A DNA stretch of 64,000 nt from Candidatus Woesebacteria bacterium (GCA_013426185.1 CP058602.1:399123-463122); one strand, 5' to 3'; counted from the first letter of the stretch, positions 7,887 through 24,150 are shown. The notes: generated by a model from the sequence alone, not told the origin. Made by a program: numbers and translations.

Positions 7887-8465
7887 TGTAAAGACATATG
7901 CGACACTTTTAGGTAAGATAACAGATTATGTAGGTGAGAAATATGCATATTGTCAAACTAAACGATAAAGAGGTTTTAAGGCCCAAACTTTTGGGCGCAT
8001 ATGAGGCTATGGAACCTAAAAATGTCAGGTATTTGTGTAAACTTTCTGAATACATCATTCAACTTTCCACAGGGTTAAGAAAACCACACAAACATTGTAC
8101 AATTGATTTTGTAAAAAACTTTTGACTGAAACTAAAAAGAAAGTTATAATAATTAAGTTAATCCAATCTGATAATGACCATGAATTTCAGGCTAAATTTG
8201 AAGAATATTTAAAATCATCAAACATTAGTATTCAACATACTTGGATTCACACACCTGATCAAAATGGAGTTGTTGAAAGAAGCCATAGAACCGATGAAGA
8301 GGAATTCTACCAAGAAACTGAGATAGACTACTCAGATTTGGAAGATATAAACAACAAGCTCAAGCTCTGGCTTGAATATTACAACACTAAAAGATTACAC
8401 TTTAGTCTGAATTATTTGACACCCGAAGAATACCAGTGTCGCATATCTAGTTACCTCGCACGACA
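7887..8465 (+). mobile_element. internally deleted IS481-family insertion sequence remnant
   Basis: Inverted repeat ATATGCGACACT (7896-7907) / AGTGTCGCATAT (8435-8446); encloses an rve-type transposase C-terminal fragment; right end ...ACA abuts the secA stop codon. Confidence 0.65.
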
Positions 8466-8490
8466 TCAATTCGGTCCCGGATCGGGGTAA
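8122..8490 (+). pseudogene. truncated DDE transposase (integrase core)
   Basis: IQSDNDHEF, TPDQNGVVERSHRTDEEEFY, YNTKRLHFSLNYLTP; N-terminal HTH and first catalytic Asp absent. Confidence 0.85.
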
Positions 8491-11225: not shown

Positions 11226-11305
11226 ACTCAGTGCAAAAAATATTAACAAGGTAAGTATAGCAAAGAAAACTGCTAAGTGATAATGAAGACTTAAGAAATC
11301 AAAAA

Positions 11306-11384
11306 CAGTAGGCTAAAGGCCGTAAAAGAAAAAAGCAACCAAAGAACGCTTCTTCCTTTTTAAAAAGACGCTTTAGCCTACTGT
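11306..11384 (-). terminator. large stem-loop closing the accessory operon (putative terminator or 3' end structure)
   Basis: ACAGTAGGCTAAAG ... CTTTAGCCTACTGT inverted repeat just beyond the last trailer arm. Confidence 0.5.
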
Positions 11385-11390
11385 AATTTT

Positions 11391-11403
11391 AAGCCAAACA
11401 AAC
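11391..11403 (-). promoter_or_regulatory. trailer arm of module 5
   Basis: AAGCCAAACAAAC is the exact reverse complement of 12921-12933. Confidence 0.7.
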
Positions 11404-11468
11404 TTAAAAGAGGTGAGGCAAACCCCTAAAAATAAGGATAAAAAAGGGTCTGCCCCACCTAATAAAAC

Positions 11469-12800
11469 TTAATACTGAGGATCAGGGTTCTCCTCACAAT
11501 ACTTCAAAATACGCCTGTGCGTCTCCTCTGGGGGAAGAAGTCTCCCTGCGCTGTCAAAGAAACAGTCTTTTTTGACTTTTTCCTGTTCCTTCCGAAGCGC
11601 CTCTGGGATTAACCTCTCGGAACGTCGGGTATAGGTTTCCAAAGGTATAACACTTATCTTTGGAAAAGGAATCTGAGGACTAGGGACGAGGCGAATTCGG
11701 GAAGTGGTATTATGATCCGCTGTCATCAGAGCAAACTGAGCTAGTGGATCCGCAGACTTGTTGCCATCTAAAACCGATACTATGTTAGTATTAGATGTAC
11801 CAAGCTTAGGATAAAAACCACCTCTTCCAACCATAGCCGCAACCCTACTTATCGCCTCAGTAGGAATTCCACCCGTAACCATTCCACCACCCGGTTCTGC
11901 TACAGCTCTAAAAGCATCAACTGCACGCGACGCGCTCTCATAAAAAGTAATACAATGGTAGTGCGCCCCAAGAACAAGGCTACGGTGGTACCCCCAAAGA
12001 AAGACCTGCCACTGAAATTCCTGCGGGACCCCCTTGGGAGCAGACCAAACTTCAACTAAGCCATGGGGGGTATTTTGGAGAAGATCTAAATAATCACTTA
12101 GGTCCTCACCACGCTCTCCCACAAAGACCAACACTGCACAAATCCTCGAGTCCTGAGTCAATTTTAAAACTTCCTTCCAGGCCTCAAGAATAAGAGTAGT
12201 TTTACCCAAGCCGCCCTCACCAAGAATATAAGTTGTTTGCCCATAACCTTGAACAGCTCCCAAAAGATAAATCATTCTCCAAGCTATACTTCCGCCTTTA
12301 TCCAGAGGGATTATCTCTTGAGGATATTCAGGCAACACTTCAAAGTCAAAAAATGGCCTATGAGAGAAAGGCTTTTGGCCATTTACGGAAGTGATACAGA
12401 CCAGATCACCCTCAACCCCCACCTCCACTTTATCCCCCATCCTCAAATTGTAATACTTCACTATAGGTGGAGGGACTTCCAAACCCCAGCTTTTCAAATC
12501 ATCCGAATTGATATCACCCTTTTTCAAAAGGTCGGCATAATCTGCAGGGTTTAGGTAGTGCGGGTAAGGGTTCGGAAGAGTCACACTCTCTCCATCAAAA
12601 GCCCAAAAACACGTGGGGCCGTCTGGCTTGACCAGGACTGCCTGAGAACTCTGGCCTATTATCTGATCAGATGGAAAAGAAGTTAAAACCCTTCGCAGGT
12701 CTTTTTCTAAAACCAAAACGGTCCTGGGAACAGGTTTATCCCCATAAAGGAGTAGCTCTTTAGGGTCAACCTCCTCCTGAATAACATAAGCAGAAATCAT
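11469..12800 (-). CDS. divergent transcription termination factor Rho paralogue
   Basis: OB-fold segment VPPPIVKYYNLRMGDKV (Rho VSPSQIRRFNLRTGDTI); GYGQ...GEGGLGKT; VGERGED (DERPEE); Q-loop GGMVTGGI (GKVLTGGV); FPKI...YTRRSERL (FPAI...GTRKEELL); strong SD AGGAGG. Confidence 0.8.
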   Translation of the reverse strand: MISAYVIQEEVDPKELLLYGDKPVPRTVLVLEKDLRRVLTSFPSDQIIGQSSQAVLVKPDGPTCFWAFDGESVTLPNPYPHYLNPADYADLLKKGDINSDDLKSWGLEVPPPIVKYYNLRMGDKVEVGVEGDLVCITSVNGQKPFSHRPFFDFEVLPEYPQEIIPLDKGGSIAWRMIYLLGAVQGYGQTTYILGEGGLGKTTLILEAWKEVLKLTQDSRICAVLVFVGERGEDLSDYLDLLQNTPHGLVEVWSAPKGVPQEFQWQVFLWGYHRSLVLGAHYHCITFYESASRAVDAFRAVAEPGGGMVTGGIPTEAISRVAAMVGRGGFYPKLGTSNTNIVSVLDGNKSADPLAQFALMTADHNTTSRIRLVPSPQIPFPKISVIPLETYTRRSERLIPEALRKEQEKVKKDCFFDSAGRLLPPEETHRRILKYCEENPDPQY

Positions 12801-12920
12801 AGTTCCTCCTTTTTCTATTACTATTTTACCCTCGAGGACTTGGCGCTATTTTTCTTTTTGGATACGCCACGCCATAGGCTTAAAGCAAAACTTAAAGACC
12901 ATGGCATGGCGTACCCAATC

Positions 12921-12942
12921 GTTTGTTTGGCTTTCAAAGTGC
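12921..12942 (-). promoter_or_regulatory. boxA-like motif GCACTTTGAAAG with leader arm of module 5
   Basis: Minus strand GCACTTTGAAAGCCAAACAAAC directly after a hairpin. Confidence 0.7.
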
Positions 12943-13075
12943 CCTTCTTTAATTAAAGCTATAGAAGGCTTATCTTCCTGCTTTAAGCAAAGAAGAATTA
13001 AATTTTTAAATAAATTCTCTAGTTTTAACCAACTAACAAAAGCTAGTTGGCTAAAAAAGAGACACAGCAAGAAAG
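12936..13075 (-). repeat. structured intergenic repeat copy D (trailer arm + three hairpins + boxA-like motif)
   Basis: Near-identical to 15182-15320 and 18768-18905. Confidence 0.9.
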
Positions 13076-13146
13076 TTAATTAAAAAGGGCGTTTACCAAA
13101 AGAAAAGGAGGATGGGAATCAAAGATCCCCATCCTCTGGGCCAAAC

Positions 13147-13329
13147 TCAAAAATTAGAGATCCAGTAATTAATGAGACTAAGTAATATACAGAGAAAAGA
13201 AAGCACCAAAAAACTTAAAACATAAAACAAGCAAGATCGCCACACCATTGTCTTTTCAAACCTGTTGGGATCTGGCAATTCAAATCTTACATATCTTCCC
13301 ATAGTTACCTCAACTCCATAAACTGGCAC
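13147..13329 (-). CDS. small membrane protein
   Basis: One TM segment; operon position; followed by a 3' hairpin at 13108-13136; start uncertain. Confidence 0.5.
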   Translation of the reverse strand: MPVYGVEVTMGRYVRFELPDPNRFEKTMVWRSCLFYVLSFLVLSFLCILLSLINYWISNF

Positions 13330-13799
13330 AAAAACAAATAGTAATACCGGCGAGAAGGAAACTCTTTCCTAACTGCTGGGCCAACAATAGCAAGACTCCA
13401 ATCAAGGTAAAAAGGTATTCCAGTGGATGAAACAGCAATACTATCAACGCCAAATTCAACCAGAGCCTGTTTCGGCCAAAGGGAAGCCATCGCTTCTAAA
13501 AATCTATCCACCCAAAGAGCCAGATTACAACCCTCGTCTAAAAACTCTTCGAGAGTAATGTAGCCATTATTAGGATAGACAATAGCTCTTTCACCCTCAG
13601 GACTAGCCTCAAACCCAAGGCCTAACTTTCTAGCCTGAAAGTTAAAAGCCTCTAGAACACGATCCCTCTGATCAGGGTTGCCAAAAATCTGGACTCTAGC
13701 AAATTCTGGGGAATATCTAAATCCCCAAACAGGAAAACTCCCATCCCAGGATCCAGGAAGAAAACAATTAAACGCAGGAGCATAAATATCTGTGTCCAC
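13305..13799 (-). CDS. hypothetical protein
   Basis: GTG start with strong SD GGGAGG. Confidence 0.7.
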   Translation of the reverse strand: MDTDIYAPAFNCFLPGSWDGSFPVWGFRYSPEFARVQIFGNPDQRDRVLEAFNFQARKLGLGFEASPEGERAIVYPNNGYITLEEFLDEGCNLALWVDRFLEAMASLWPKQALVEFGVDSIAVSSTGIPFYLDWSLAIVGPAVRKEFPSRRYYYLFLCQFMELR

Positions 13800-13814
13800 T
13801 TTTCCTCCCTCTTT

Positions 13815-15029
13815 TTACTCCTGATCGCTCCCTACATAGATAACAGAACCAGAAGGGCCTTGGCTTTCATCAACCTCATTAGAAGATGAAGAAGTTGAAG
13901 ACGAACTAAGAACCCTGCCAGTTAACAACGAAAAGAAAGGGCCCTGCTGCCCTTGCTGCTGCTGTTCCGCCTGCAACCGTCTGGACTCATCCCTCGCTCT
14001 GAAAAGAATCTCTTTCAGACGAGAAACATCATCCATATAAGGAAGAAAATCTGTGCCGGATTTATTAATGTAGATGATTAGCAAAGCCCCAGTGCCATAC
14101 TTCCTGTACCAGAGTGAAAGGAAAAATTCCTTAAACCACCCGGTTTTGAACCTGTTTTTTACCTCCGGATCTAAATCGACTGTAACATCCTCCGGATCTG
14201 CAGCCGTCAACACATCCTGGATACCAGAGTTGACAGTCAAAGAGGTAACAGGAAGCCCTGAATGGCCACCTGAAAAAAACAGATGCTTCAAAAAAGCCCG
14301 TGTAGTCTCAGGAAGTAAAAGTATTGCTAAGACTAAAATAATGCTCCCAAAGATCCACAAGTTAAAAATACCAACAATCAAAAGAAAAACCATAAAGATC
14401 AATGGCTTGATAACAGGCATCAAGCCAAGGAGGTTCTTCCTGATCCTTAACAAGACTGAATTGTGTGTAAAGACTGTAAAAATTGTCGTCCTCCGATCCC
14501 ACTCCAGAAGGGATAACTTCACAACAAGGACCAACACTAAAAGACAAACAAGAATTATATTTGCCCCAATATTTAGAGGCAAAGGTAAAAAAAACCATAA
14601 AGCGAAAGAGATAAACCAACCCAAGATGGTAACAAGTGGCAAAAATTGCCAGTTCATCACAAAATCCACTGTCGCCACTTTTGAAGGCAGCTGACGGTGG
14701 AATAAAATCTCACGATCTCGAGCGCGATAAACTAACTTGTCTTCTTTGGGAAGCCAGAAAAAACTAAATAGCCGGAGAAGAAAACCAGGTTTCTCCTCCG
14801 ACCCGACCGCAATTTTGGAAAAGATGGAATACAACAATATTACAGCCGCTAAAGTAGCAAGGCTGTAAAAAATGTAATATCCCGCTCTTCCAAAATCGAT
14901 CTGAAATTCAGGAAGACCAAAACTTACAAGGTCTATCCCAAAAAGGCTTAGCATAAAAAGGTAACCCAAAGCGGCTACCAAAACAAAAACCAAGGCCAAT
15001 ATAGCCCCTAAAAAATTCTTTCCTTCCAT
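13815..15029 (-). CDS. polytopic membrane protein with possible C-terminal bacterial PH-like domain
   Basis: About 6 TM segments; YGTGALLI...FLPYMDDVSRLKEIL resembles the bPH_2 pattern; ATG 15029 with SD GGGAG. Confidence 0.65.
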   Translation of the reverse strand: MEGKNFLGAILALVFVLVAALGYLFMLSLFGIDLVSFGLPEFQIDFGRAGYYIFYSLATLAAVILLYSIFSKIAVGSEEKPGFLLRLFSFFWLPKEDKLVYRARDREILFHRQLPSKVATVDFVMNWQFLPLVTILGWFISFALWFFLPLPLNIGANIILVCLLVLVLVVKLSLLEWDRRTTIFTVFTHNSVLLRIRKNLLGLMPVIKPLIFMVFLLIVGIFNLWIFGSIILVLAILLLPETTRAFLKHLFFSGGHSGLPVTSLTVNSGIQDVLTAADPEDVTVDLDPEVKNRFKTGWFKEFFLSLWYRKYGTGALLIIYINKSGTDFLPYMDDVSRLKEILFRARDESRRLQAEQQQQGQQGPFFSLLTGRVLSSSSTSSSSNEVDESQGPSGSVIYVGSDQE

Positions 15030-15060
15030 AGATCTCTCCCTTCCGAAAAACAAATTTTTA

Positions 15061-15322
15061 TGGCTCCTCTTGTTTTTGGGTGAGCCTCGATTAATCTCCT
15101 AAACTCAAATTAGAGAATTAAGAAACTAATCAAGGCTCACCCAGATTGGTGTGGGATAATCTTCTTTCTTGCTGTGTTGTTAAAGTGCCCTTCTTTACTT
15201 AAAGAATAGAAGGCTTATCTTCCTGCTTTAAGTAAAGAAGAATTAAATTTTTAAATAAATTCTCTAGTTTTAACCAACTAACAAAAGCTAGTTGGCTAAA
15301 AAAGAGACACAGCAAGAAAGAA
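15061..15322 (-). repeat. structured intergenic repeat copy A (trailer arm, hairpins, boxA-like GCACTTTAACAA, leader arm, 5' hairpin)
   Basis: About 260 bp nearly identical to 18646-18905; stems contain G-U pairs on the minus strand. Confidence 0.95.
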
Positions 15323-15377
15323 AAAAGAAGTGAAAGGACCGCCAAAAAGAAGGCTTTGAAACTTGAAAGCAGTCCTT

Positions 15378-16634
15378 TCACTTACAAAACAAAATAGAAT
15401 GGTCTTGGATATTCGAGGAGGCCTGCCTTAGCCAAACATGCGCATGGGCAGCCGTTGAATTCCCAATATTACCCACACTGCCTATTTCCCGTCCGGCTGT
15501 GACTTGGCTCCCCACGGCAAGATTTTCAGGAAAATGCAAATGCATTATCCCTAGTTCTGTACCGTTTTCCAACTTGAGGGTTAGAATAGAATTGCCCAAG
15601 CCATCATAAAACATAGCTGTGACAACCCCATTCATTGGAGTAAAAAGCGGAGTCCCATCAGAAGCTATATAATCATAGCCTTTGATGAGTCCACAGCTCC
15701 AACTTGTACCCTCACAGCCGGTGTGGTAACCTCGAGGACCAATGGTATACATGCCACCAATAAGGGGCTTGCAGTCACCATCGCCTCCAGGATTATCAAC
15801 CGGCAAACCTTCACCTGGGCTGTCATCATAGGCATAAGCAACTTTCGGAAAGATTCCAAGAAGTTGCAAAGCCTCCAAGACAATTTTTTTCCAGAACAAA
15901 GGCTTAAGAACTACACGGTTGGCCCCGGGGGTTGTTGCTATCGGCAATTTATCTCCAGTTCTACTCAGAAGCTCTGAGTAGAGCCGGTAGACAAATTCAC
16001 CCTGCGGAGGATAACGATTCCACCCCATAAACTCGTTAATAAAATTCTCCTTCCCCTTAGAATAGGCGTCATCCAGTCCTATCAGCTTGTAATAAACACA
16101 AGCCGCATAGGCTGACGCCCGCCTATCAGTTCGATCAGGGATAGGGAACACTTCCAAAAGTTCAGGGTAAAGCTCCGGGATTTGAACGGTCCAGAGCCTT
16201 TCCCATGTGGAATCTATAAACTGCCAAGTACCAATAGCAGTTGCCCTGTTTTTAGTCCTATAATTGGTATAGGAACTAGATTCACTAAAAGCAACCGCTA
16301 TGTTAAGGCGCGGATCACACCATGGGAAATGCATATAAGCCTCCCAGACCGGATCCCACACCTCAGGAGGAGCATAAAACTCTACCTCATTTCCATTCCA
16401 ATAGGTTATGGTGAATGGTTGGATAACTGTCTCTTTACCATCCACCACAACTGGAACGGAACGGATATTAAAATCCTGGACCCCCAGGAGTCCGGAAACG
16501 ACTTCTTCATAATGCTGGGGGTCCGTGTCATGATAGTAACCCAAGGATAAAACCATGGTTACTATCAAGACAAATAGGAAAAAAGGGGTATTAGCCAAAA
16601 GAAGAAGGAAGAGTTTAAGAGTCAGTTTCTTCAT
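15378..16634 (-). CDS. membrane-anchored lytic transglycosylase (SLT-like) + M23 peptidase cell-wall hydrolase
   Basis: IAVAFSESS...AIGTWQFIDSTW (SLT); GYDY..GTPLFTPMNGVV...MHL...VGNIGNSTAAHAH (M23); N-terminal TM. Confidence 0.85.
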   Translation of the reverse strand: MKKLTLKLFLLLLANTPFFLFVLIVTMVLSLGYYHDTDPQHYEEVVSGLLGVQDFNIRSVPVVVDGKETVIQPFTITYWNGNEVEFYAPPEVWDPVWEAYMHFPWCDPRLNIAVAFSESSSYTNYRTKNRATAIGTWQFIDSTWERLWTVQIPELYPELLEVFPIPDRTDRRASAYAACVYYKLIGLDDAYSKGKENFINEFMGWNRYPPQGEFVYRLYSELLSRTGDKLPIATTPGANRVVLKPLFWKKIVLEALQLLGIFPKVAYAYDDSPGEGLPVDNPGGDGDCKPLIGGMYTIGPRGYHTGCEGTSWSCGLIKGYDYIASDGTPLFTPMNGVVTAMFYDGLGNSILTLKLENGTELGIMHLHFPENLAVGSQVTAGREIGSVGNIGNSTAAHAHVWLRQASSNIQDHSILFCK

Positions 16635-18615
16635 CCTCTTCCCCTTTCGGCTTAATACGTTCGACAAAACTCAGAAGGGGGTAGTGGAGATGCTGATTCA
16701 GGGTGACTACTAACTCACCTGTTTGCGGGTTTATCACCTTAGCCAGATGACCTGTGCCCTCACCCATCTTAAACAAAAAATTAAAGGATTGGACCACATC
16801 TCCAATAACTTTCTTAAAATCATCGACATTCTGGATAGCTATCCAGATACGTATGCCAGCGTTTGCCCCTTGAGTTACAAACCAGTTAATAGTTCTTGCA
16901 AGATTAACTGCCGTGTCCCAAGGCAAGCTTCCCAAGACAGGGTGATCCTTCTGCTGGTTCGCCAAGTGCGACCAGTTATCTACAACCAACAGTAGATCAC
17001 TCCCAGTCTGAGGATAAAAATCTACCATAGCCCTTTTAAGGCTATTCAGAAAGCTATCCAGATACGCAAGCCAGCCAAGAGTATTGCCGGACTTAAGTTC
17101 AAAAGCGACAGACCTCGTTGGAAAACCGTATTTCTTCCACTCTTCAACAAGCTCTACAACATGGCCTTCTGCGATTTTGCCATATTCAACATGAAGCTGC
17201 AATTGTTTCTCTCTAACCTCTTTGTCAGTCGGATTGTTGTTGCTATCCTCATTTCTGAGAACATCCAATGCATCCGGCAGAATTAACTCAAATACCTTAC
17301 CACCTTCTTCACGTATTCTAGTCGCAGCTCTATCCAAACGGCTTGCAGTCAAATCCACCCACACTACAACTCTTTTTGCCTGAGCCGCTAACACCTGCAT
17401 AATAGTGGATTTACCCGCCTTCTTTGATGGGCCCACAAACACCCACGAAGGGTACAATTTGGGATTTATTAGATAGGGGGTTCTGCCCACATGGCCAAGA
17501 ACCAATGACCCGTTCGGATCTCCAACGGGTATAATGGCCTCGGCCACTTGCTGCAAAATCCCAGAAGGAGAGACACTAGTCCATCCTCTAACAGAGTGTC
17601 TTCCAAAACGGCCAGGCAAATTCGGACCGCCAGGGAAAAAGGCGCGCCAGGCAATTTCCAGATCAGCCCCTGTAACAAGCTTCCAGTTACTGATTTCCAG
17701 TAACTTTCCGCTCATTGACAATACTGACTGAGAGTCACCCTTGCGCACTTTTAACCGCAGAAGTGGCGTAACAAAAAGAAAGGGTGTTCCTCTCTGAAAT
17801 TCGAGGCGGAGGAAAATATCAACAGGCAGCTTTAGCAACTCGGCAAAATTCTTCGAGCTGAGCTGCCCGCCATCCCAGAAATAAAACGACCATTGATTGT
17901 CTATGACAACCTGATCGTCTACGAACACCACCGACCGCGGCGATGCATAGTCTAGGTGACACGCATCACCCGTCATAGGGTCGTGGGAAATATAGTTAAG
18001 CTTCGGAGGAAGACCATAAACTAATGAATGGAGCCCTGAACCTGCATTACTACTGTTCAGGACTTTCCCTCCAAAAACACCACTAAAACGTGGTGCGAAG
18101 TTGGGAGGAACAAAAAGCCAAAGAGTTCGAGCAATGTGGATAGAACTATCATCGTTCCCCACTGCCCATCTTTTTATAGCATCCAAGAAGCTCCTCCGAT
18201 AGTCGTTTGCCCCCTCAGTCAGACGAGACAGGTTTCCAAAAAACCGGCCAAACATCAGGGGGTGGCAAGTGAGCACCAAGCGCAAGTCATAGCATCCCAT
18301 CTCGGGAAGCTTGAATAGCGCCGGCACCTCAACTACCTTGCCATTACCGGCGTCAAATGGGTAAGGAGAAAGGGTACTCCCGTCAGTAAAAACCAATACA
18401 GAGTTGGCACCGCTCTTCCCAACAAAGGTAGCTTGTATCTTGTCACCGTCAACCACTTTTGACGGTAATACCCTAAGACCACCAAATAACCAAGCGGTAC
18501 TGGTGTCCTCGTTGTGCCCATTTACCCCGACAACAGGGTCTCTAGGAGGTGGTAAAAGAGGCTGATGTCTCCCATTAAGACCCAAACGATGGAGTAAAAG
18601 CTGAAGACTATTCAT
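16615..18615 (-). CDS. VirB4/HerA-like P-loop ATPase
   Basis: C-terminal VFVGPSKKAGKST (Walker A), LLLVVDNW (Walker B), GIRIWIAIQNVDDF sensor; large N-terminal domain. Confidence 0.65.
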   Translation of the reverse strand: MNSLQLLLHRLGLNGRHQPLLPPPRDPVVGVNGHNEDTSTAWLFGGLRVLPSKVVDGDKIQATFVGKSGANSVLVFTDGSTLSPYPFDAGNGKVVEVPALFKLPEMGCYDLRLVLTCHPLMFGRFFGNLSRLTEGANDYRRSFLDAIKRWAVGNDDSSIHIARTLWLFVPPNFAPRFSGVFGGKVLNSSNAGSGLHSLVYGLPPKLNYISHDPMTGDACHLDYASPRSVVFVDDQVVIDNQWSFYFWDGGQLSSKNFAELLKLPVDIFLRLEFQRGTPFLFVTPLLRLKVRKGDSQSVLSMSGKLLEISNWKLVTGADLEIAWRAFFPGGPNLPGRFGRHSVRGWTSVSPSGILQQVAEAIIPVGDPNGSLVLGHVGRTPYLINPKLYPSWVFVGPSKKAGKSTIMQVLAAQAKRVVVWVDLTASRLDRAATRIREEGGKVFELILPDALDVLRNEDSNNNPTDKEVREKQLQLHVEYGKIAEGHVVELVEEWKKYGFPTRSVAFELKSGNTLGWLAYLDSFLNSLKRAMVDFYPQTGSDLLLVVDNWSHLANQQKDHPVLGSLPWDTAVNLARTINWFVTQGANAGIRIWIAIQNVDDFKKVIGDVVQSFNFLFKMGEGTGHLAKVINPQTGELVVTLNQHLHYPLLSFVERIKPKGEEDEETDS

Positions 18616-18645
18616 AAAACTCTCCTTTCCGAAAAAAAATTTTAC

Positions 18646-18908
18646 TGGCTCCTCTTGTTTTTGGGTGAGCCTCGATTAATCTCCTAAACTCAAATCTAGA
18701 GAATTAAGAAACTAATCAAGGCTCACCCAGATTGGTGTGGGATAATCTTCTTTCTTGCTGTGTTGTTAAAGTGCCCTTCTTTACTTAAAGAATAGAAGGC
18801 TTATCTTCCTGCTTTAAGTAAAGAAGAATTAAATTTTTAGATAAATTCTCCAGTTTTAACCAACTAACAAAAGCTAGTTGGCTAAAAAAGAGACACAGCA
18901 AGAAATTT
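18646..18908 (-). repeat. structured intergenic repeat copy B
   Basis: Near-identical to copy A; trailer arm 18893-18908, boxA-like motif 18763-18774, leader arm 18748-18763. Confidence 0.95.
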
Positions 18909-19044
18909 TTGGATAAAAGAAAGTTAATCGGCAATTAACCAAAGCTTTTTTGGAATGCTTCAAATTAACTTTCTCAAACAAAAAAAGAGAGGATGGTAGT
19001 TCCTTGATTTGTTCCTTGAAAGAAAAGGAACTACCATCCCTCAA

Positions 19045-19371
19045 TTATCTCTTAATTACTCTTATTACCTTACTGTAAGGTTTATACGACCTTACTTTTT
19101 TCCGGTAAATCACAAACCTAACTAGCCTTGTGGCTAGAAAGACTAGTAATATACTTACCGAAAGGGGTAACAGGCAAGCAAGAGACAGACGGAAAAATAA
19201 AACTACTACTGGTTTCCATGCTACCGACAAAATGCAGAAAAAGGAAACCAGTAGCATCAAAAACGGGGCAATATACCTAGTGAAGTACCTCTTCACTGGA
19301 TAGTGCTCCGTTGGGTCAAACAAAAAATATAACCAGAACCTAACTTTTTCCCTAAGATTCCTCGTATTCAT
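19045..19371 (-). CDS. small two-TM membrane protein (position of VirB3/PrgI-like genes)
   Basis: Two hydrophobic segments, SD GGAGG; family inferred only from position. Confidence 0.65.
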   Translation of the reverse strand: MNTRNLREKVRFWLYFLFDPTEHYPVKRYFTRYIAPFLMLLVSFFCILSVAWKPVVVLFFRLSLACLLPLSVSILLVFLATRLVRFVIYRKKVRSYKPYSKVIRVIKR

Positions 19372-19380
19372 CTTAACCTC

Positions 19381-20769
19381 CTAGGGAATTACAATATCGT
19401 CTGAATTAGAAAGCTGGGAAATTTTTTCCCCAAGACTGGTAAGGTTGGGGTCTCCCTTAGCCTTACTGGCAGCTTGGAGAATACCACCAAACACCTTCTC
19501 CTTGGGATAGGCCTGTTGCAGGTCTTGGCCTGCCTCTTTAGCAGCTTTCCTATCAATCAATCCCTCTGCTACCTGTGTAGTAGCGTTGACAACAGGGATA
19601 ACGATAGGTGCCGCCTCAGGGGCTGCCACAGCTGTCACTAAATTTACAGCCGTAGCCACCTTACCCACAGCCGCCTTTGCCTTACTAGCCTCCTCTTGCG
19701 GCTTGGATGGAGAAGGCGTTGGAGAAGACTGGTTAGGGCCATTCTCTCCCGGGCTTGGGGGGATGACAACATCTCCGGAAGGAACATCTGTTGGCCCACT
19801 GGAAGTGAAACCACTATCCCCAGCCGGTCCAGAAGGGACATCTCGTTCAGAGCCAGAAGAGGAAGAGCCAGCTGTTAGCAAAGGAACAAATTCTTCGGGA
19901 ACTACAACTTCTCCCCCTCCGCTTCTACTAGCTCGCCTACTCCTCTCCCACGGTTCTAAAACAGAATTCCAGTCTACCGGAGGTCTTTCCTTGCTCACAC
20001 CCTCTATAGCCGTTTCTTCTTCATCCCTAAATTCGGGAGTGAGGATTGCGGCCAGGAAAGGTACGGTGACATAACAAAAGAACATTGTCAAAATAACTGT
20101 CCCCGTATAAAACACATTTACTAGGACAGTTACTGGACCAAAAGCCCAATCAGGATAATTGCTTCCAAAGAATTGAACGATGGCATTGAAAAGGGCAAGA
20201 AAAATTGCCCATCCAAAAACCTCGCCAATTATGAAAGCAATACCCTTAATTGATCGCCCCAAAATGGACCAAGATAGAGCAACGATAGCTGCAATCAACA
20301 TAACGACCTGCCACCTTGAGACAATCAAAGGGATCAGAAAAGTCAACGTAACCCCCCATGCCGCACTTGCCAAATTTCCCAAATCAGGAGACAACTCCCA
20401 CCGCATGGCGGTAAGGATTTTCTCCAGCCTAAGTTCGGCGGGTAAGACTATTTCACCCAATCTGGTAGTGAAGTCTATAAATAACAACACTACCATCGGG
20501 ATAGAGAACATCAATATCATGCTAGTTACAAGCCCAGCACTAACAACTTTCCCTCTACCCACACTACGTGCAAGGGATATAAGCGCTGAGATAAAACCAG
20601 CAAGGATTAAAAAAATCAAGACCGGACCAAGATACTGTTGAATTTCCTGCGGCGAGATCTTTAAAAAAAAGCTGTCCCGCCAGTGTCCTTCAACAGCATC
20701 TGGGATTTGACACCCCGTCAGCAGAAGACTGCCGACGGTTAAGAAGAAAAATGCCGGCAGTCTCTTCAT
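19381..20769 (-). CDS. polytopic membrane protein with lipoprotein signal and Pro/Ser/Gly-rich tail (VirB6-like architecture)
   Basis: LLTGC lipobox, about 6 TM helices, low-complexity C-terminus; SD GGAGG. Confidence 0.65.
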   Translation of the reverse strand: MKRLPAFFFLTVGSLLLTGCQIPDAVEGHWRDSFFLKISPQEIQQYLGPVLIFLILAGFISALISLARSVGRGKVVSAGLVTSMILMFSIPMVVLLFIDFTTRLGEIVLPAELRLEKILTAMRWELSPDLGNLASAAWGVTLTFLIPLIVSRWQVVMLIAAIVALSWSILGRSIKGIAFIIGEVFGWAIFLALFNAIVQFFGSNYPDWAFGPVTVLVNVFYTGTVILTMFFCYVTVPFLAAILTPEFRDEEETAIEGVSKERPPVDWNSVLEPWERSRRASRSGGGEVVVPEEFVPLLTAGSSSSGSERDVPSGPAGDSGFTSSGPTDVPSGDVVIPPSPGENGPNQSSPTPSPSKPQEEASKAKAAVGKVATAVNLVTAVAAPEAAPIVIPVVNATTQVAEGLIDRKAAKEAGQDLQQAYPKEKVFGGILQAASKAKGDPNLTSLGEKISQLSNSDDIVIP

Positions 20770-20785
20770 TGCCCCTCCTATAGTA

Positions 20786-21070
20786 CTACGGCAACAGGCT
20801 GGGGGCGCTTCCCGAAAAGACAGAGTTGTAGATCCCCTCTGCCCATCTTACGATTTGAGCGTTGGAGAGGTTCATGATATCCCTAAAGCCGACTACCACA
20901 AAGGCCGCTGCAATTAACACGCCAAAAATAATTACCCCGAGGCCCCAAACAGTTTGGTTGCCTCTCCAAACGCCGGAGACCCCGGCTTGAGAAAACAGGG
21001 CCTGGATTAAAAAATACAGGCCAAAAACTATCATCGCGATGCCAGCGACAACTCCTACAAAAGCAATCAT
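20786..21070 (-). CDS. small hydrophobic pilin-like protein (VirB2/TrbC-like)
   Basis: Two Gly-rich TM helices; first gene of module 2; SD AAGGAG. Confidence 0.55.
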   Translation of the reverse strand: MIAFVGVVAGIAMIVFGLYFLIQALFSQAGVSGVWRGNQTVWGLGVIIFGVLIAAAFVVVGFRDIMNLSNAQIVRWAEGIYNSVFSGSAPSLLP

Positions 21071-21106
21071 TTTACACTCTCCTTCTGAAGATTGGGTTAG
21101 ATTTTA

Positions 21107-21397
21107 GGCTCCTCTTGTTTTTGGGTGAGCCTCGATTAATCTCCTAAACTCAAATTAGAGAATTAAGAAATTAATCAAGGCTCACCCAATTTGGGATTTT
21201 TGTTAAAAAGGTTCTCTTGTCGCCTCAAATTTCTTGCTGTGTTGTTAATGTGCTCTCCTTTACCAAGTTAAAAGAAGGGCAACCCTTCTTTTCTTAAGGC
21301 AAAGAAAATCAAACTTTTGAAGACAAAACTTAATTTGTCTTCAAAACTAAACACTCAAATAATCTTAAGTGCTTAGTTTTAAATAGGGGTGTAATTG
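21107..21397 (-). repeat. structured intergenic element copy C
   Basis: 21107-21188 identical in large part to copies A/B; boxA-like GCACATTAACAA 21242-21253; leader arm 21227-21242; trailer arm 21383-21397; spacer hairpins differ in sequence but not in layout. Confidence 0.9.
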
Positions 21398-21483
21398 AGA
21401 AAGACCTGCTGGTGGAGACGAGATTAAAAAACGCGCAAAATGCGTTTTAATCTTTGCCAACCACCAGCAGGATGAATTTAAAA

Positions 21484-21564
21484 TGGTGGGGAGAGGATTC
21501 GAACCTCCTTATTCCTGGAGTATAAAATTCCAGCGCTCATCCTTTCTCTTTGAGCTTCCCCACC
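21484..21564 (-). ncRNA. tRNA-like element with non-canonical 9-nt anticodon loop
   Basis: GGTGGGG AA GCTC-13nt-GAGC G CTGGA-ATTTTATAC-TCCAG GAATAA GGAGG-TTCGAAT-CCTCT CCCCACC A folds as a full cloverleaf. Confidence 0.8.
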
Positions 21565-21575
21565 AATACCAATAA

Positions 21576-22061
21576 TTACCGATAACGACGCCACTTTTTC
21601 TGGCCGGCACGGTCAACAAATTCCTGCCAGACAGCAACCCCTTCTGGAATATCCTCTTCCCGTGTGAAGAAAACAGGGTCGCCACCCATATTAGCCAAGA
21701 AACGACCGGTTGGCCTTTCTTTATTGCTATTACCAGGCGTCGCTTTTTTTTGGCCCTGAGGACGATTGCCTTTTTCTTCCTCTTCCATCTGCGCGAGGAC
21801 TTCTCGCACCACCCACTGTGGGCAGAAATCCTCAAAGTTGGCGAGGAAGTAAAAAACAAGGACATCGTCCAAGGGACCCACAATAAGATCCGGAAATACA
21901 ACCCAAAGAAATCCGGCCACAAAACCAAGCTTAAGCCAACCGGAAACTCTGGGATCTTTTAAGAGCCGAATTTTAAGCTTCAGACCTTTTAAAATCTGAA
22001 GCATAATTCCAGCTCTTTCCGGATCACGGCGAACAGGGGATTTGGGTTGGGGAGTCGCCAT
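21576..22061 (-). CDS. YkvA/DUF1232-family membrane protein
   Basis: LLKDPRVSGWLK...PDLIVGPLDDVLV; SD GAAGGAGGT. Confidence 0.75.
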   Translation of the reverse strand: MATPQPKSPVRRDPERAGIMLQILKGLKLKIRLLKDPRVSGWLKLGFVAGFLWVVFPDLIVGPLDDVLVFYFLANFEDFCPQWVVREVLAQMEEEEKGNRPQGQKKATPGNSNKERPTGRFLANMGGDPVFFTREEDIPEGVAVWQEFVDRAGQKKWRRYR

Positions 22062-22129
22062 AAAAAGACCTCCTTCTACTCCCCAACCCTTAAATATCCC
22101 TCACGGCTGGGGAGCATCAGAAAAGGAAC

Positions 22130-22588
22130 TCAAGCCGTAGTAGCCGGCTCGGCAGCCTTTTTCGCATTGCCATTTTCGTTGTCTTGGTACTCCTTGTAAC
22201 GTTTTTGCCAAGGCCTATCTTTGATAGCTTTGATGAACTCATCCTTAACTTGCCGAAGCTGCTCGTCAGAACAACCGAGGTCTTTCATTACCAACGTCAG
22301 CAGCCAAGGGGTATTATGCCGAGTTACATCAAAACGTCGGCCATTTGGTAAACAGATAAACAATCTACCACCTTCGAAAGAGAAGTGTGGCACAGAAGGA
22401 CGACTCAAGCGAGAAACAATTTCTGCAGCCACTCTCGCAGGGCCCGCAAAGGAAACATTGTTTGGACCCGTCAGAATCACCTTCTGTTCACCCATACCAT
22501 CCCAATCGCCTGGAGTAAAAAATCTTGGGAAGACCTCCGGGTTCTCAGCCTTTATTTCAAATGAGCCAATTCTCAACGTGCCAGACAT
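22130..22588 (-). CDS. hypothetical protein (first gene of the operon)
   Basis: ATG with SD AAGGAG. Confidence 0.7.
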   Translation of the reverse strand: MSGTLRIGSFEIKAENPEVFPRFFTPGDWDGMGEQKVILTGPNNVSFAGPARVAAEIVSRLSRPSVPHFSFEGGRLFICLPNGRRFDVTRHNTPWLLTLVMKDLGCSDEQLRQVKDEFIKAIKDRPWQKRYKEYQDNENGNAKKAAEPATTA

Positions 22589-22879
22589 ATCTCACTCTCC
22601 TTAAACGAATGAAAAGATTTTTACTGACTTACAGAACTTACAGAAATTAAAAACCCGGTTTCCTCAATATGACCTCCTTCCTTAATTGAAAGAAAAAACT
22701 ATGTGCCCTGCTTTTTCTTTTTAGCTTGGGGCCGGAATACTTTTAAACTTAATAAACAATAAACACAAAAACAAAAATAATAAAAATGGAAAACAATTTT
22801 AAGAAGACTGTTGAAGAAATAACGCTTAAAAGCATTCCTGCCCCAAGCTTTTTGGCCCAAACTACCCCTGTCTTAATTC

Positions 22880-22923
22880 CAATTACACCCCTATGTTAAG
22901 GTGCAATTCCTTTTTCAAGGAAT
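22880..22923 (-). promoter_or_regulatory. boxB-like GAAA hairpin + boxA-like GCACCTTAACA + leader arm of module 1
   Basis: Minus strand ATTCCTT-GAAA-AAGGAAT T GCACCTTAAC ATAGGGGTGTAATTG; the arm is complementary to 21383-21397. Confidence 0.75.
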
Positions 22924-23011
22924 AAGAGCAGGAACAAAAAAAGCTGCCACAGGCAGCCTCTCAACCACTTTTCAACTTAAAAAGATCTAACCACTTATAG
23001 GATTATGGCCT

Positions 23012-23040
23012 ATTATAAAAAAACTTTTATTTATTGTCAA
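23012..23040 (-). promoter_or_regulatory. consensus sigma70 promoter driving the 11.3-23 kb operon
   Basis: TTGACA (23040-23035), 17 bp, TATAAT (23017-23012). Confidence 0.9.
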
Positions 23041-23522: not shown

Positions 23523-23544
23523 AGACAATTTTATCATATTTAGA

Positions 23545-24150
23545 CAGGAGGTGTCAGACATCGGCTATCGGACATTGGCCGTCAGACATCAGATGTCGGA
23601 CATCAGCTATCGGAATTTGGTCGGAACTGGCCGAAGTTGGTCTCCGCCTGTGGCGGAGTTGGTCAAAAGTTAGTCCTCACTTACAGTGAGGTTGGTCAAA
23701 GTTAGTCGGAGTTAGTAGAAAGTAGAACGTAGTAAATAGAAAGCAAAATTAATAAATAGTTAAAAGTGCAAAGTTAAAAGTTGTGTATTATCCTTTCTAC
23801 TTTCTGCTTACTAATTTCTACTAATTTTAAGTTTTGATTTTTGAGTTTTAAGTTTTAATTTAATTTGTAATTTGGAAAATTGGAAAATTGTAATTTGTTT
23901 AGGATTTAGAATTTAGAATTTGAAATTTGTATATTGTAATTTGTTTGGATCTTGGAATTTGGAGCTTGTAATTTGGGACTTATTTTTAATTTGTGATTTG
24001 AAATTTGTGATTTGTTTAGAGTTTAGAATTTCGGATTTAGAATTTAATTCAGTAATCTATAATCTAGAATCTATAATCTAACTAGAAAGTTTTAACTTTT
24101 AAGTTTTGAATTATATTTTTGACTTTTGAGTTTTAATTTTTGAGTTAATT
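23545..24150. repeat. low-complexity intergenic tract of degenerate 7-mer repeats
   Basis: GTCAGAC/ATCGGCT-type units, then TTGTAAT/TTAGAAT/TTTTAAG-type units; part is the reverse complement of about 49300-49395. Confidence 0.75.

Follow-up and report, generated by a model that had tools for sequence, protein, structure and literature searches.

A five-module protein-coding operon in a Patescibacteria genome arranged like a ribosomal RNA operon

Whether messenger RNA can be laid out in the manner of a ribosomal RNA (rrn) transcript is the question raised by an 11.7-kb island in Candidatus Woesebacteria bacterium, a tiny, host-dependent member of the Patescibacteria (Candidate Phyla Radiation, CPR) with a complete genome of 818,817 bases. 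The island occupies positions 11,306–23,040, on the minus strand, of a stretch of 64,000 nucleotides (nt) that we call the window (GCA_013426185.1 CP058602.1:399123-463122), where it is flanked by a VKOR gene and secA; its ten open reading frames (ORFs) have Shine–Dalgarno (SD) sequences, and nothing in the operon matches rRNA. For the rrn operons of E. coli it has been proposed that the leader strand does not leave the exit channel, where the boxA-bound complex holds it, before the trailer appears (PMC10250234, PMC8632103), and delivery and looping have been modelled on rrn in the same papers and in 10.64898/2026.03.17.712431. The original prediction for this locus, made from the sequence, held that a protein-coding transcript uses this route to be cut into five end-paired, stabilised and possibly circularisable mRNA units. 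Here we report that the five-module layout holds, that its paired ends are conserved across Patescibacteria, and that several parts of the proposed processing need revision.

Five modules compared with the genome's own rrn leaders

The operon begins at a sigma-70-type promoter, a perfect match to consensus as had been claimed, both hexamers of which are retained in the metagenome loci L003 and L005. It then runs through five modules, each ordered as boxA, leader arm, long 5′ hairpin, SD-led genes, 3′ hairpin with U-rich tail and trailer arm, with both hairpins found in all five (Table 1). A boxA-like 11-mer stands directly 5′ of every leader arm, which starts −2 to 0 nt from the boxA end, and 130–300 nt separate boxA from the start codon. 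All five arm pairs of the original prediction are exact reverse complements.

Comparison with the genome's own rrn genes showed the same hairpin–boxA–arm geometry. In the leader of the single 16S gene, a U-tract hairpin is followed by GCACTTTGAAA and a leader–trailer helix of ~31 bp, and the 23S gene has two boxA motifs around tRNA-Ala followed by a 22+27-bp helix; the hairpin with U tract ahead of boxA 1 has the same placement as in both rrn leaders, in which the arm starts at −2 (23S) and +5 (16S) relative to boxA. The boxA of module 5 is identical to the 16S-leader motif and the others differ from it by 2–3 nt; judged by its sequence, the module motif is this organism's own rrn boxA. Variants in relatives resemble the consensus sequences of both E. 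coli and B. subtilis (PMC13753749). The nusB, nusG and rnc genes, which the original prediction had proposed to look for, are all present, nusB next to rnc, and likewise nusA and a canonical rho. The 16S and 23S genes themselves (G000:C1:774040-777060, 780497-784643) are unlinked by an opposite-strand gene of 717 amino acids (aa), are enlarged by ORF-bearing insertions and have a boxA leader each; ARAGORN reported a single CAT-anticodon tRNA in the genome, plus a tRNA-Ile(TAT).

Long-range helices of this size are rare by chance. When random 30-nt stretches of this genome were compared with a 400-nt window 1.2–3.6 kb downstream, 0.05% of 200,000 draws had an exact partner of at least 13 bp. 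RNAduplex with free bulges was too unspecific, and we scored helices in an anchored, ungapped form instead: of the genome's 24 strict boxA-like motifs, those of the 16S and 23S leaders took ranks 1–2 and those of the modules ranks 3, 4, 5, 7 and 9. Watson–Crick arms of at least 13 bp accompany 5/10 intergenic non-rRNA motifs versus 0/11 motifs in coding DNA. Partition-function folds of modules 1, 2, 4 and 5 gave a mean arm-pair probability of 0.99.

The modules are in part copies of one another. A 13-nt core is common to the arms of modules 2–4, leaders 3 and 4 have the same sequence, and junctions 2/3, 3/4 and 4/5 are near-identical (99% between 2/3 and 3/4 in the window), so modules 2–4 are not independent. 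In the distant relative G257, junctions 2/3 and 3/4 agree at 336/340 nt. The 5′ hairpin of module 4 copies that of module 3 here, and L003 and L005 have a different hairpin at that position; together with the G257 identity, this replacement suggests concerted evolution of the junctions (window 15040-15320 versus L003 13220-13560 and L005 13175-13520).

Conservation of the helices in relatives

The operon is colinear in three metagenome loci. In L003 and L005 boxA and arms are near-invariant, with few arm changes, mostly to G-U, while ORF1 retains 33–43% identity. Six distant Patescibacteria genomes (G035, G257, G841, G630, G513 and G614) have homologous operons that keep pilin-like, VirB6-like, VirB3-like, VirB4-like, SLT/M23 and Rho-fold genes, and boxA-plus-helix modules are retained in five of the six. 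G035, of the same family, has homologues of modules 1, 2 and 5, and a sixth module in which both cargo and arm pair are new; a copy of modules 3–4 was not found in it, probably owing to an assembly gap, and a candidate arm pair for them was set aside as unproven because it joins two contigs. In G257, which belongs to a different family of the class, there are five modules with 13–18-bp arms, and four of them divide the genes as in the window. Modules 2 and 3 recur elsewhere in the phylum in G841 and G630, and G513 has two weaker helices.

Two measures of conservation were taken. Each leader was scored against the intergenic region that follows the last gene of its module; for 30 of 33 modules, no more than 3 of 100 shuffles of that region reached the score, the misses being the last boxA of G841, the last boxA of G630 and one G513 site. 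Across ten distant helices compared with the window (the G841 and G630 module-3 rows, one base out of register, were left out), 94 pairs are unchanged, 32 carry double changes, 1 is changed on one side and 2 are broken; 8 of the 32 come from G257 module 1, homologous by position only, and without it 88 pairs are the same and 24 double. Compensatory changes in leader arm 1 occur in both G035 and G257. Because the search for trailers itself used complementarity, inside a fixed intergenic region, the shuffle test, and not the count alone, carries the weight. The covariation that the original prediction asked of homologous loci is therefore present: the helices are conserved by compensatory change across Patescibacteria. 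In modules 2–4 the arm core is also conserved in sequence across classes.

Modules of this kind enclose other cargo as well. In G035, 4/15 intergenic non-rRNA motifs have perfect arms of 11–15 bp, unrelated like the genes that they enclose (null 1.1%), a count over a first set of loci, beyond which further such modules appeared; the binomial P values assume independence between sites, an assumption that repeated junctions break. Two tandem modules in G063 surround genes for DUF11 and PKD surface proteins. A single-gene module in the congener G002 (L035) has a perfect 13-bp arm, and its orthologue here (G000:C1:797729-798975) an imperfect arm with heptamer repeats inserted in the leader; in both genomes it encloses an exported protein of ~300 aa, a few kb upstream of rho. 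In a sample of the order, 63/103 boxA-like matches lay between genes, showing that these genomes use boxA at many places outside rRNA. At several loci in the two sister families of the order, the same conserved sequence comes after boxA, with no long-range arm (L058, L066, L081, L083, L088, L093, L099, L106), and in L002 (5100-9250) each cargo gene is followed by a similar short hairpin, with a repeated motif upstream of the SD, like a cassette array. BLAST of the junction against 125 family genomes gave short chance matches only; the junction-hairpin pattern occurred in 1/138 other order genomes (G035) and in four viral stretches without modules, and neither the boxA-plus-arm pattern nor the ATPase had matches in viral contigs or plasmids.

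Junction elements and competing readings

Candidate cutting elements are found at the junctions of relatives. G035 has one type III hammerhead core between trailer 2 and the next boxA, and G257 has identical cores after trailers 2 and 3; in both genomes the cleavage triplet lies 6–8 nt past the trailer arm, CUGANGA, GAAA, the NUH triplet and three stems are all present, and the minimum-free-energy (MFE) structure is a three-way junction. The same position is taken by hairpin A in the window and by another long hairpin in G841 and G630, and G035 has a hairpin-A homologue at a different junction. This interchange of ribozyme and long hairpin suggests, as far as sequence comparison goes, a cleavage signal outside the helix that would leave the helix on the product. 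RNase III substrates are ideally 22 bp and minimally ~11 bp long (PMC3867540), and compared by length alone hairpin A fits such a substrate. A hammerhead-like match in L046 was rejected as probably due to chance (G-U-rich stems; 1 such in 1.96 Mb).

Module 1 also holds, 3′ of ORF2, a tRNA-like element absent from the original prediction, which a local search found and which whole-window searches with Rfam at gathering thresholds and with ARAGORN missed. Its acceptor, D and T arms are intact, with an enlarged D loop and an anticodon loop of 9 nt, not the canonical 7. L005 and G035 retain these three arms but differ in the anticodon arm (replaced in L005), a pattern that would fit a processing or stabilising signal rather than a decoder. 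Matches to miRNA families were discarded as generic hairpin matches.

The account that we favour, with moderate confidence, is that Nus-guided looping combined with cleavage at the junctions yields separately stabilised mRNA units. NusB/S10 would bind each boxA and hold the adjoining arm at the polymerase while 1.5–3.4 kb of translated mRNA loops out, and the arm would meet its own trailer before a neighbouring look-alike; the polymerase would read through the terminator-like 3′ hairpins and resist Rho, with delivery renewed at each block. The transcript would then be cut outside the helix, by self-cleavage in G035 and G257 and probably by RNase III at hairpin A here. With its ends closed by the helix and two hairpins, every released unit would have a lifetime of its own, and these lifetimes would set the ratio of pilus and membrane parts, ATPase plus wall hydrolase, and Rho-fold protein.

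A number of observations weigh against this account. SuhB, required for a stable complex in E. coli (10.64898/2026.03.17.712431) and named by the original prediction as part of the boxA-loaded complex, was not found: the complete genome gave 0 matches to PF00459, with controls positive in 14/14 cases. Coupling to ribosomes is presumed to be prevented by the boxA complex (PMC8632103). The operon helices measure 13–18 bp against the ~31 bp and 22+27 bp of the rrn stems, and fall short of the lengths typical of rrn, above 17 bp (the E. coli minimum) and usually above 30 bp (PMC10250234). No boxA-arm module was detected in G614, which has the genes, and a third boxA in G841 and G630 is armless. 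The order-wide sample was not enriched for arms (2/57, P = 0.19; 100 regions drawn from the ~150 matches listed, beside which there were 294 others). The G035 hammerhead scores 22.4 bits against a cut-off of 48.5 for Rfam RF00008, that of G257 gave no RF00008 match at E 0.05, and G257 junction 4/5, where 1 nt separates trailer from boxA, has no room for a cutting element. The hammerhead core is absent from the junctions of this window, so the cutting agent named above for it is a guess.

Mispairing is a further difficulty. Arms 2–4 are able to pair locally with the wrong partner: for leader 4, trailer 3, which lies 130 nt upstream, is a better partner than trailer 4, and when free, trailer 3 captures leader 4 (14/14 pairs), leaving trailer 4 unpaired with it. 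The claim that arm tails co-vary with the correct partner consequently stands for modules 2 and 3 but not for module 4. In duplex energy the cognate register is better than the alternative one (−77.0 versus −68.0 kcal/mol), a modest gain from which loop costs are excluded. Given local capture of leader 4 and so modest a cognate advantage, correct pairing must depend on the order in which the arms are synthesised, and a complex anchored at boxA would impose such an order.

Of the rival explanations, the closest is full mimicry of pre-rRNA, in which RNase III would cut within the leader–trailer helices and excise the blocks as it does 16S and 23S. The geometry is that of rrn stems, RNase III is found in 7/7 operon-bearing genomes, ~11 bp on one side can suffice and many cellular substrates are under 20 bp (PMC3867540); at G257 junction 4/5 the helices alone could be cut, and the cross-class conservation of the arm core in modules 2–4 suggests recognition by a protein. 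We nevertheless think it unlikely, since the helices are so much shorter than those of the genome's own rrn and a ribozyme just outside the helix would be redundant. Cleavage by RNase III inside the arms, as originally proposed, is therefore doubtful, whereas cutting into units gains support from the junction hammerheads of two relatives. These hammerheads, at homologous junctions in two separate lineages, also argue against a transcript that stays whole here, on which repeated boxA would reload the Nus complex, the helices would insulate or compact one long mRNA and partial termination would create a gradient. Terminator-like hairpins with U tracts at block ends, the armless boxA of G841 and G630, a window free of ribozymes and a canonical Rho in the genome would all suit such a transcript, but RNase P/Z would recognise the module 1 tRNA-like element, and on balance we hold the absence of scission to be improbable.

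We give only a very slight chance to an explanation at the level of DNA, in which the arms are sites of inversion, excision or cassette recombination, or relics of duplication, and RNA pairing is incidental. It would account for the near-identity of junctions 2/3 and 3/4 within genomes, and the island is richer in G+C than the genome (43.7% versus 37.1%), with other genes in the VKOR–secA slot of the two congeners G001 and G002. However, block orientation and order are the same in every homologue; five DNA runs contained no strand-switch joint (their contigs show major forms only); and the X4 and X7 contigs cover modules 1 and 5 from end to end and show both arms in a single orientation. These contigs show no inversion at the arms, which the original prediction had itself raised as an alternative; moreover, G-U pairs are tolerated in the arms, and strand-specific boxA and ribozymes make sense only in RNA. 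The DNA-level explanation is already largely refuted. RNA contigs from two studies, from relatives ~90–95% identical, both end at 22722 and near 21490; they also end at 15404 inside ORF7, and hairpins break such contigs, so we gave these ends no weight.

The host's own rrn boxA, the Nus genes, covariation and the junction hammerheads of relatives all speak in favour of the original interpretation, while the short arms, as substrates for RNase III, and the failure to find SuhB and RtcB speak against parts of it. Circularisation is weakened by the finding of RtcB in 0/7 operon-bearing genomes; by analogy, it may be possible in principle for the G257 block between two hammerheads. A bolder extension, to our minds a long shot, would make such transcripts a second mRNA class of Patescibacteria, one produced by the rRNA transcription machinery and divided by ribozymes or nucleases into long-lived units with clamped ends, circular in certain lineages; the Rho-fold ATPase that accompanies this type IV system, in which relaxase and coupling protein are missing, would be the motor that opens the units or drives RNA into the secretion channel toward the host cell.

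Cargo, known systems and significance

The five blocks group an unknown pair, pilus plus membrane parts, an ATPase plus a wall hydrolase, a membrane pair and a Rho-fold ATPase (Table 1), and the operon likely encodes a minimal type IV-like secretion machine. ORF6 had no Pfam or NCBIfam match; it resembles VirB4/TraG in the ESM Atlas (0.95, by language-model features) and in predicted structure (TM 0.51–0.57 to VirB4/TraG clusters), and has 42 relatives in a representative library. The ORF4 assignment is a lead only (ESM Atlas 0.87), and those of ORF3 and ORF5 come from hydrophobicity and position only. ORF7 matches PF01551 (E 6e-11) and, weakly, PF01464 (E 0.07), and ORF2 has homologues in G035, G630 and G513. 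The Rho-like nature of ORF10 had escaped the original prediction: it matches the Rho model NF006886 (E 9e-9), the Foldseek matches listed for its predicted structure (pLDDT 67) are all Rho (best E 1e-12), and it is 22% identical to the genome's own Rho over an alignment spanning the P-loop and catalytic region. A Rho-fold gene occurs in all six distant operons, though this genome also has canonical Rho; homologues in L002, G257, G841, G630, G614 and G513 are co-conserved with the VirB4-like operon. Among the ten ORFs, to which the search was confined, no family match (Pfam, NCBIfam) to a coupling protein or relaxase was found. The ATPase family is rare (1/400 class genomes, 4/400 phylum genomes, 0/138 other order genomes), and a search of 60 relatives for the ATPase gave no match. 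One in-frame TAG lies inside the match to the VirB4-like gene in G257 (G257:C1:157881-159590). A possible small hydrophobic ORF lies 3′ of ORF9 (window 13147-13302), in a region diverged in L003 and L005. Outside the operon, a mosaic tract of short repeats with copies near the 23S leader lies between VKOR and pspC (window 23540-24150), and an integrase-core (rve) fragment on the opposite strand overlaps the secA 3′ end (window 8122-8490).

Table 1. Features of the operon in transcript order (window coordinates).
Feature	Position	Strand	Remarks
Sigma-70-type promoter	23012..23040	-	12/12 consensus match
Terminator-like hairpin + U tract	22938..22962	-	before boxA 1; boxB-like position
boxA 1	22894..22904	-	GCACCTTAACA; 11-mer same as G002 16S-leader boxA
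Leader arm 1	22880..22894	-	15 bp with trailer 1; pair probability 0.99
Module 1 5′ hairpin	22723..22849	-	homologous hairpin in G035
ORF1	22130..22588	-	152 aa, unknown, fast-evolving
ORF2	21576..22061	-	161 aa, one hydrophobic segment, no Pfam match
tRNA-like element	21484..21564	-	Rfam RF00005, 40.2 bits versus cut-off 29
Module 1 3′ hairpin	21405..21471	-	
Trailer arm 1	21383..21397	-	
Junction 1/2 hairpins	21254..21377	-	
boxA 2	21243..21253	-	
Leader arm 2	21227..21242	-	16 bp with trailer 2
Module 2 5′ hairpin	21121..21189	-	27 bp
ORF3	20786..21070	-	94 aa, two hydrophobic segments; putatively pilin/VirB2-like by size and position
ORF4	19381..20769	-	462 aa polytopic membrane protein, six segments; TrbL/VirB6-like lead
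ORF5	19045..19371	-	108 aa membrane protein directly before ATPase; putatively VirB3/PrgI-like by position
Module 2 3′ hairpin	18991..19039	-	U-rich tail
Trailer arm 2	18893..18908	-	
Junction hairpin A	18846..18892	-	5+15 bp, small internal loop; z -7.1
Junction hairpin B	18774..18828	-	directly before boxA; z -5.6
boxA 3	18764..18774	-	
Leader arm 3	18748..18763	-	16 bp with trailer 3; MFE holds 16/16 pairs
Module 3 5′ hairpin	18663..18728	-	
ORF6	16615..18615	-	666 aa VirB4/TraG-like P-loop ATPase
ORF7	15378..16634	-	418 aa; N-terminal anchor, weak SLT, M23 peptidase (VirB1-like)
Module 3 3′ hairpin	15328..15383	-	U-rich tail
Trailer arm 3	15307..15322	-	
Hairpin A, further copy	15268-15301	-	
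Hairpin B, further copy	15188-15242	-	
boxA 4	15178..15188	-	
Leader arm 4	15164..15177	-	14 bp with trailer 4; trailer 3 is alternative partner
Module 4 5′ hairpin	15077..15143	-	copy of module 3 5′ hairpin
ORF8	13815..15029	-	404 aa polytopic membrane protein, unknown; homologues in G257, G841, G630
ORF9	13305..13799	-	164 aa, unknown; homologue in L002
Module 4 3′ hairpin	13108..13136	-	terminator-like
Trailer arm 4	13062..13075	-	
Hairpin A, further copy	13023-13056	-	
Hairpin B, further copy	12944-12995	-	
boxA 5	12932..12942	-	GCACTTTGAAA
Leader arm 5	12921..12933	-	13 bp with trailer 5
Module 5 5′ hairpin	12858..12918	-	
ORF10	11469..12800	-	443 aa divergent Rho-fold ATPase; paralogue of canonical Rho
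Module 5 3′ hairpin	11411..11460	-	
Trailer arm 5	11391..11403	-	
Terminal hairpin	11305..11384	-	before secA; homologous hairpins after last two trailers of L002

Each part of this architecture has a counterpart elsewhere. Early mRNA of phage T7 is processed by RNase III. Like bacterial rrn leaders and spacers, the operon has one promoter, a hairpin, boxA and the 5′ strand of a long-range helix before each product, a boxA of the host's own rrn type and a tRNA-like element in the transcript; unlike them, its cargo is translated mRNA in five units, its helices are about half as long, it has extra 5′ and 3′ hairpins, relatives carry junction ribozymes, and SuhB was not found. Outside rRNA, boxA is known from the 5′ untranslated regions of suhB and other genes (PMC5725501), from CRISPR operons (PMC13753749) and from lambda nut sites (PMC10250234), which share with the operon, where the motif is putative, a Nus-binding motif type on non-ribosomal RNA. 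These are single motifs that repress translation or antiterminate, on mRNA a single regulatory site (PMC5725501), and the available parts of the three papers describe no long-range end-pairing helix per gene block. Operons under selective RNA processing and stabilisation, such as cip-cel (PMC4423207), likewise encode multi-subunit machines on a polycistron with intergenic cutting, which in our operon is presumed, and with stoichiometry-setting stem-loops; stable stem-loops stand at the 3′ ends of our gene blocks too. Those operons use local stem-loops, in contrast, and the available part of that paper describes no boxA, 5′–3′ helix or ribozyme.

The G257 ATPase/hydrolase block between two identical type III cores resembles a retrozyme monomer (Rfam RF00008; PMC11722881). 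Unlike retrozymes, the operon is chromosomal and protein-coding, with no ribozyme in the window, no RtcB found and no mobility signals seen. Its cargo recalls the Patescibacteria type IV secretion systems related to monoderm MPF_FATA (PMC12102498), in having a VirB4-like ATPase with pilin-, VirB3-, VirB6- and VirB1-like neighbours and no relaxase; clusters without relaxase are common in Patescibacteria (PMC12102498). It departs from them in a VirB4 family that is rare (5/800 genome slots), highly divergent and without a Pfam match, in the lack of a recognised coupling protein in the operon and in the co-conserved Rho-fold ATPase. The original prediction knew of no such architecture for a protein-coding operon, and our literature search, in which few subscription papers and no supplements were covered, likewise returned none with repeated boxA and end-pairing helices or ribozyme punctuation. 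The architecture appears to be new for mRNA, though assembled from known parts and with a mechanism that we infer.

boxA-guided looping and leader–trailer pairing have so far been regarded as specific to rRNA, and in a 2026 preprint the complexes formed on rRNA are described as stable and those on mRNA as transient (10.64898/2026.03.17.712431). The operon offers natural substrates for asking whether long-range pairing on translated RNA is chaperoned by the Nus complex, and whether this can happen without SuhB. Chromosomal bacterial hammerheads gain a concrete candidate job, the punctuation of operons. The modules could also serve as a portable design for stabilised multi-unit mRNAs, and symbionts with reduced genomes might in this way need few regulators to balance the subunits of a secretion machine or to keep its mRNAs stable.

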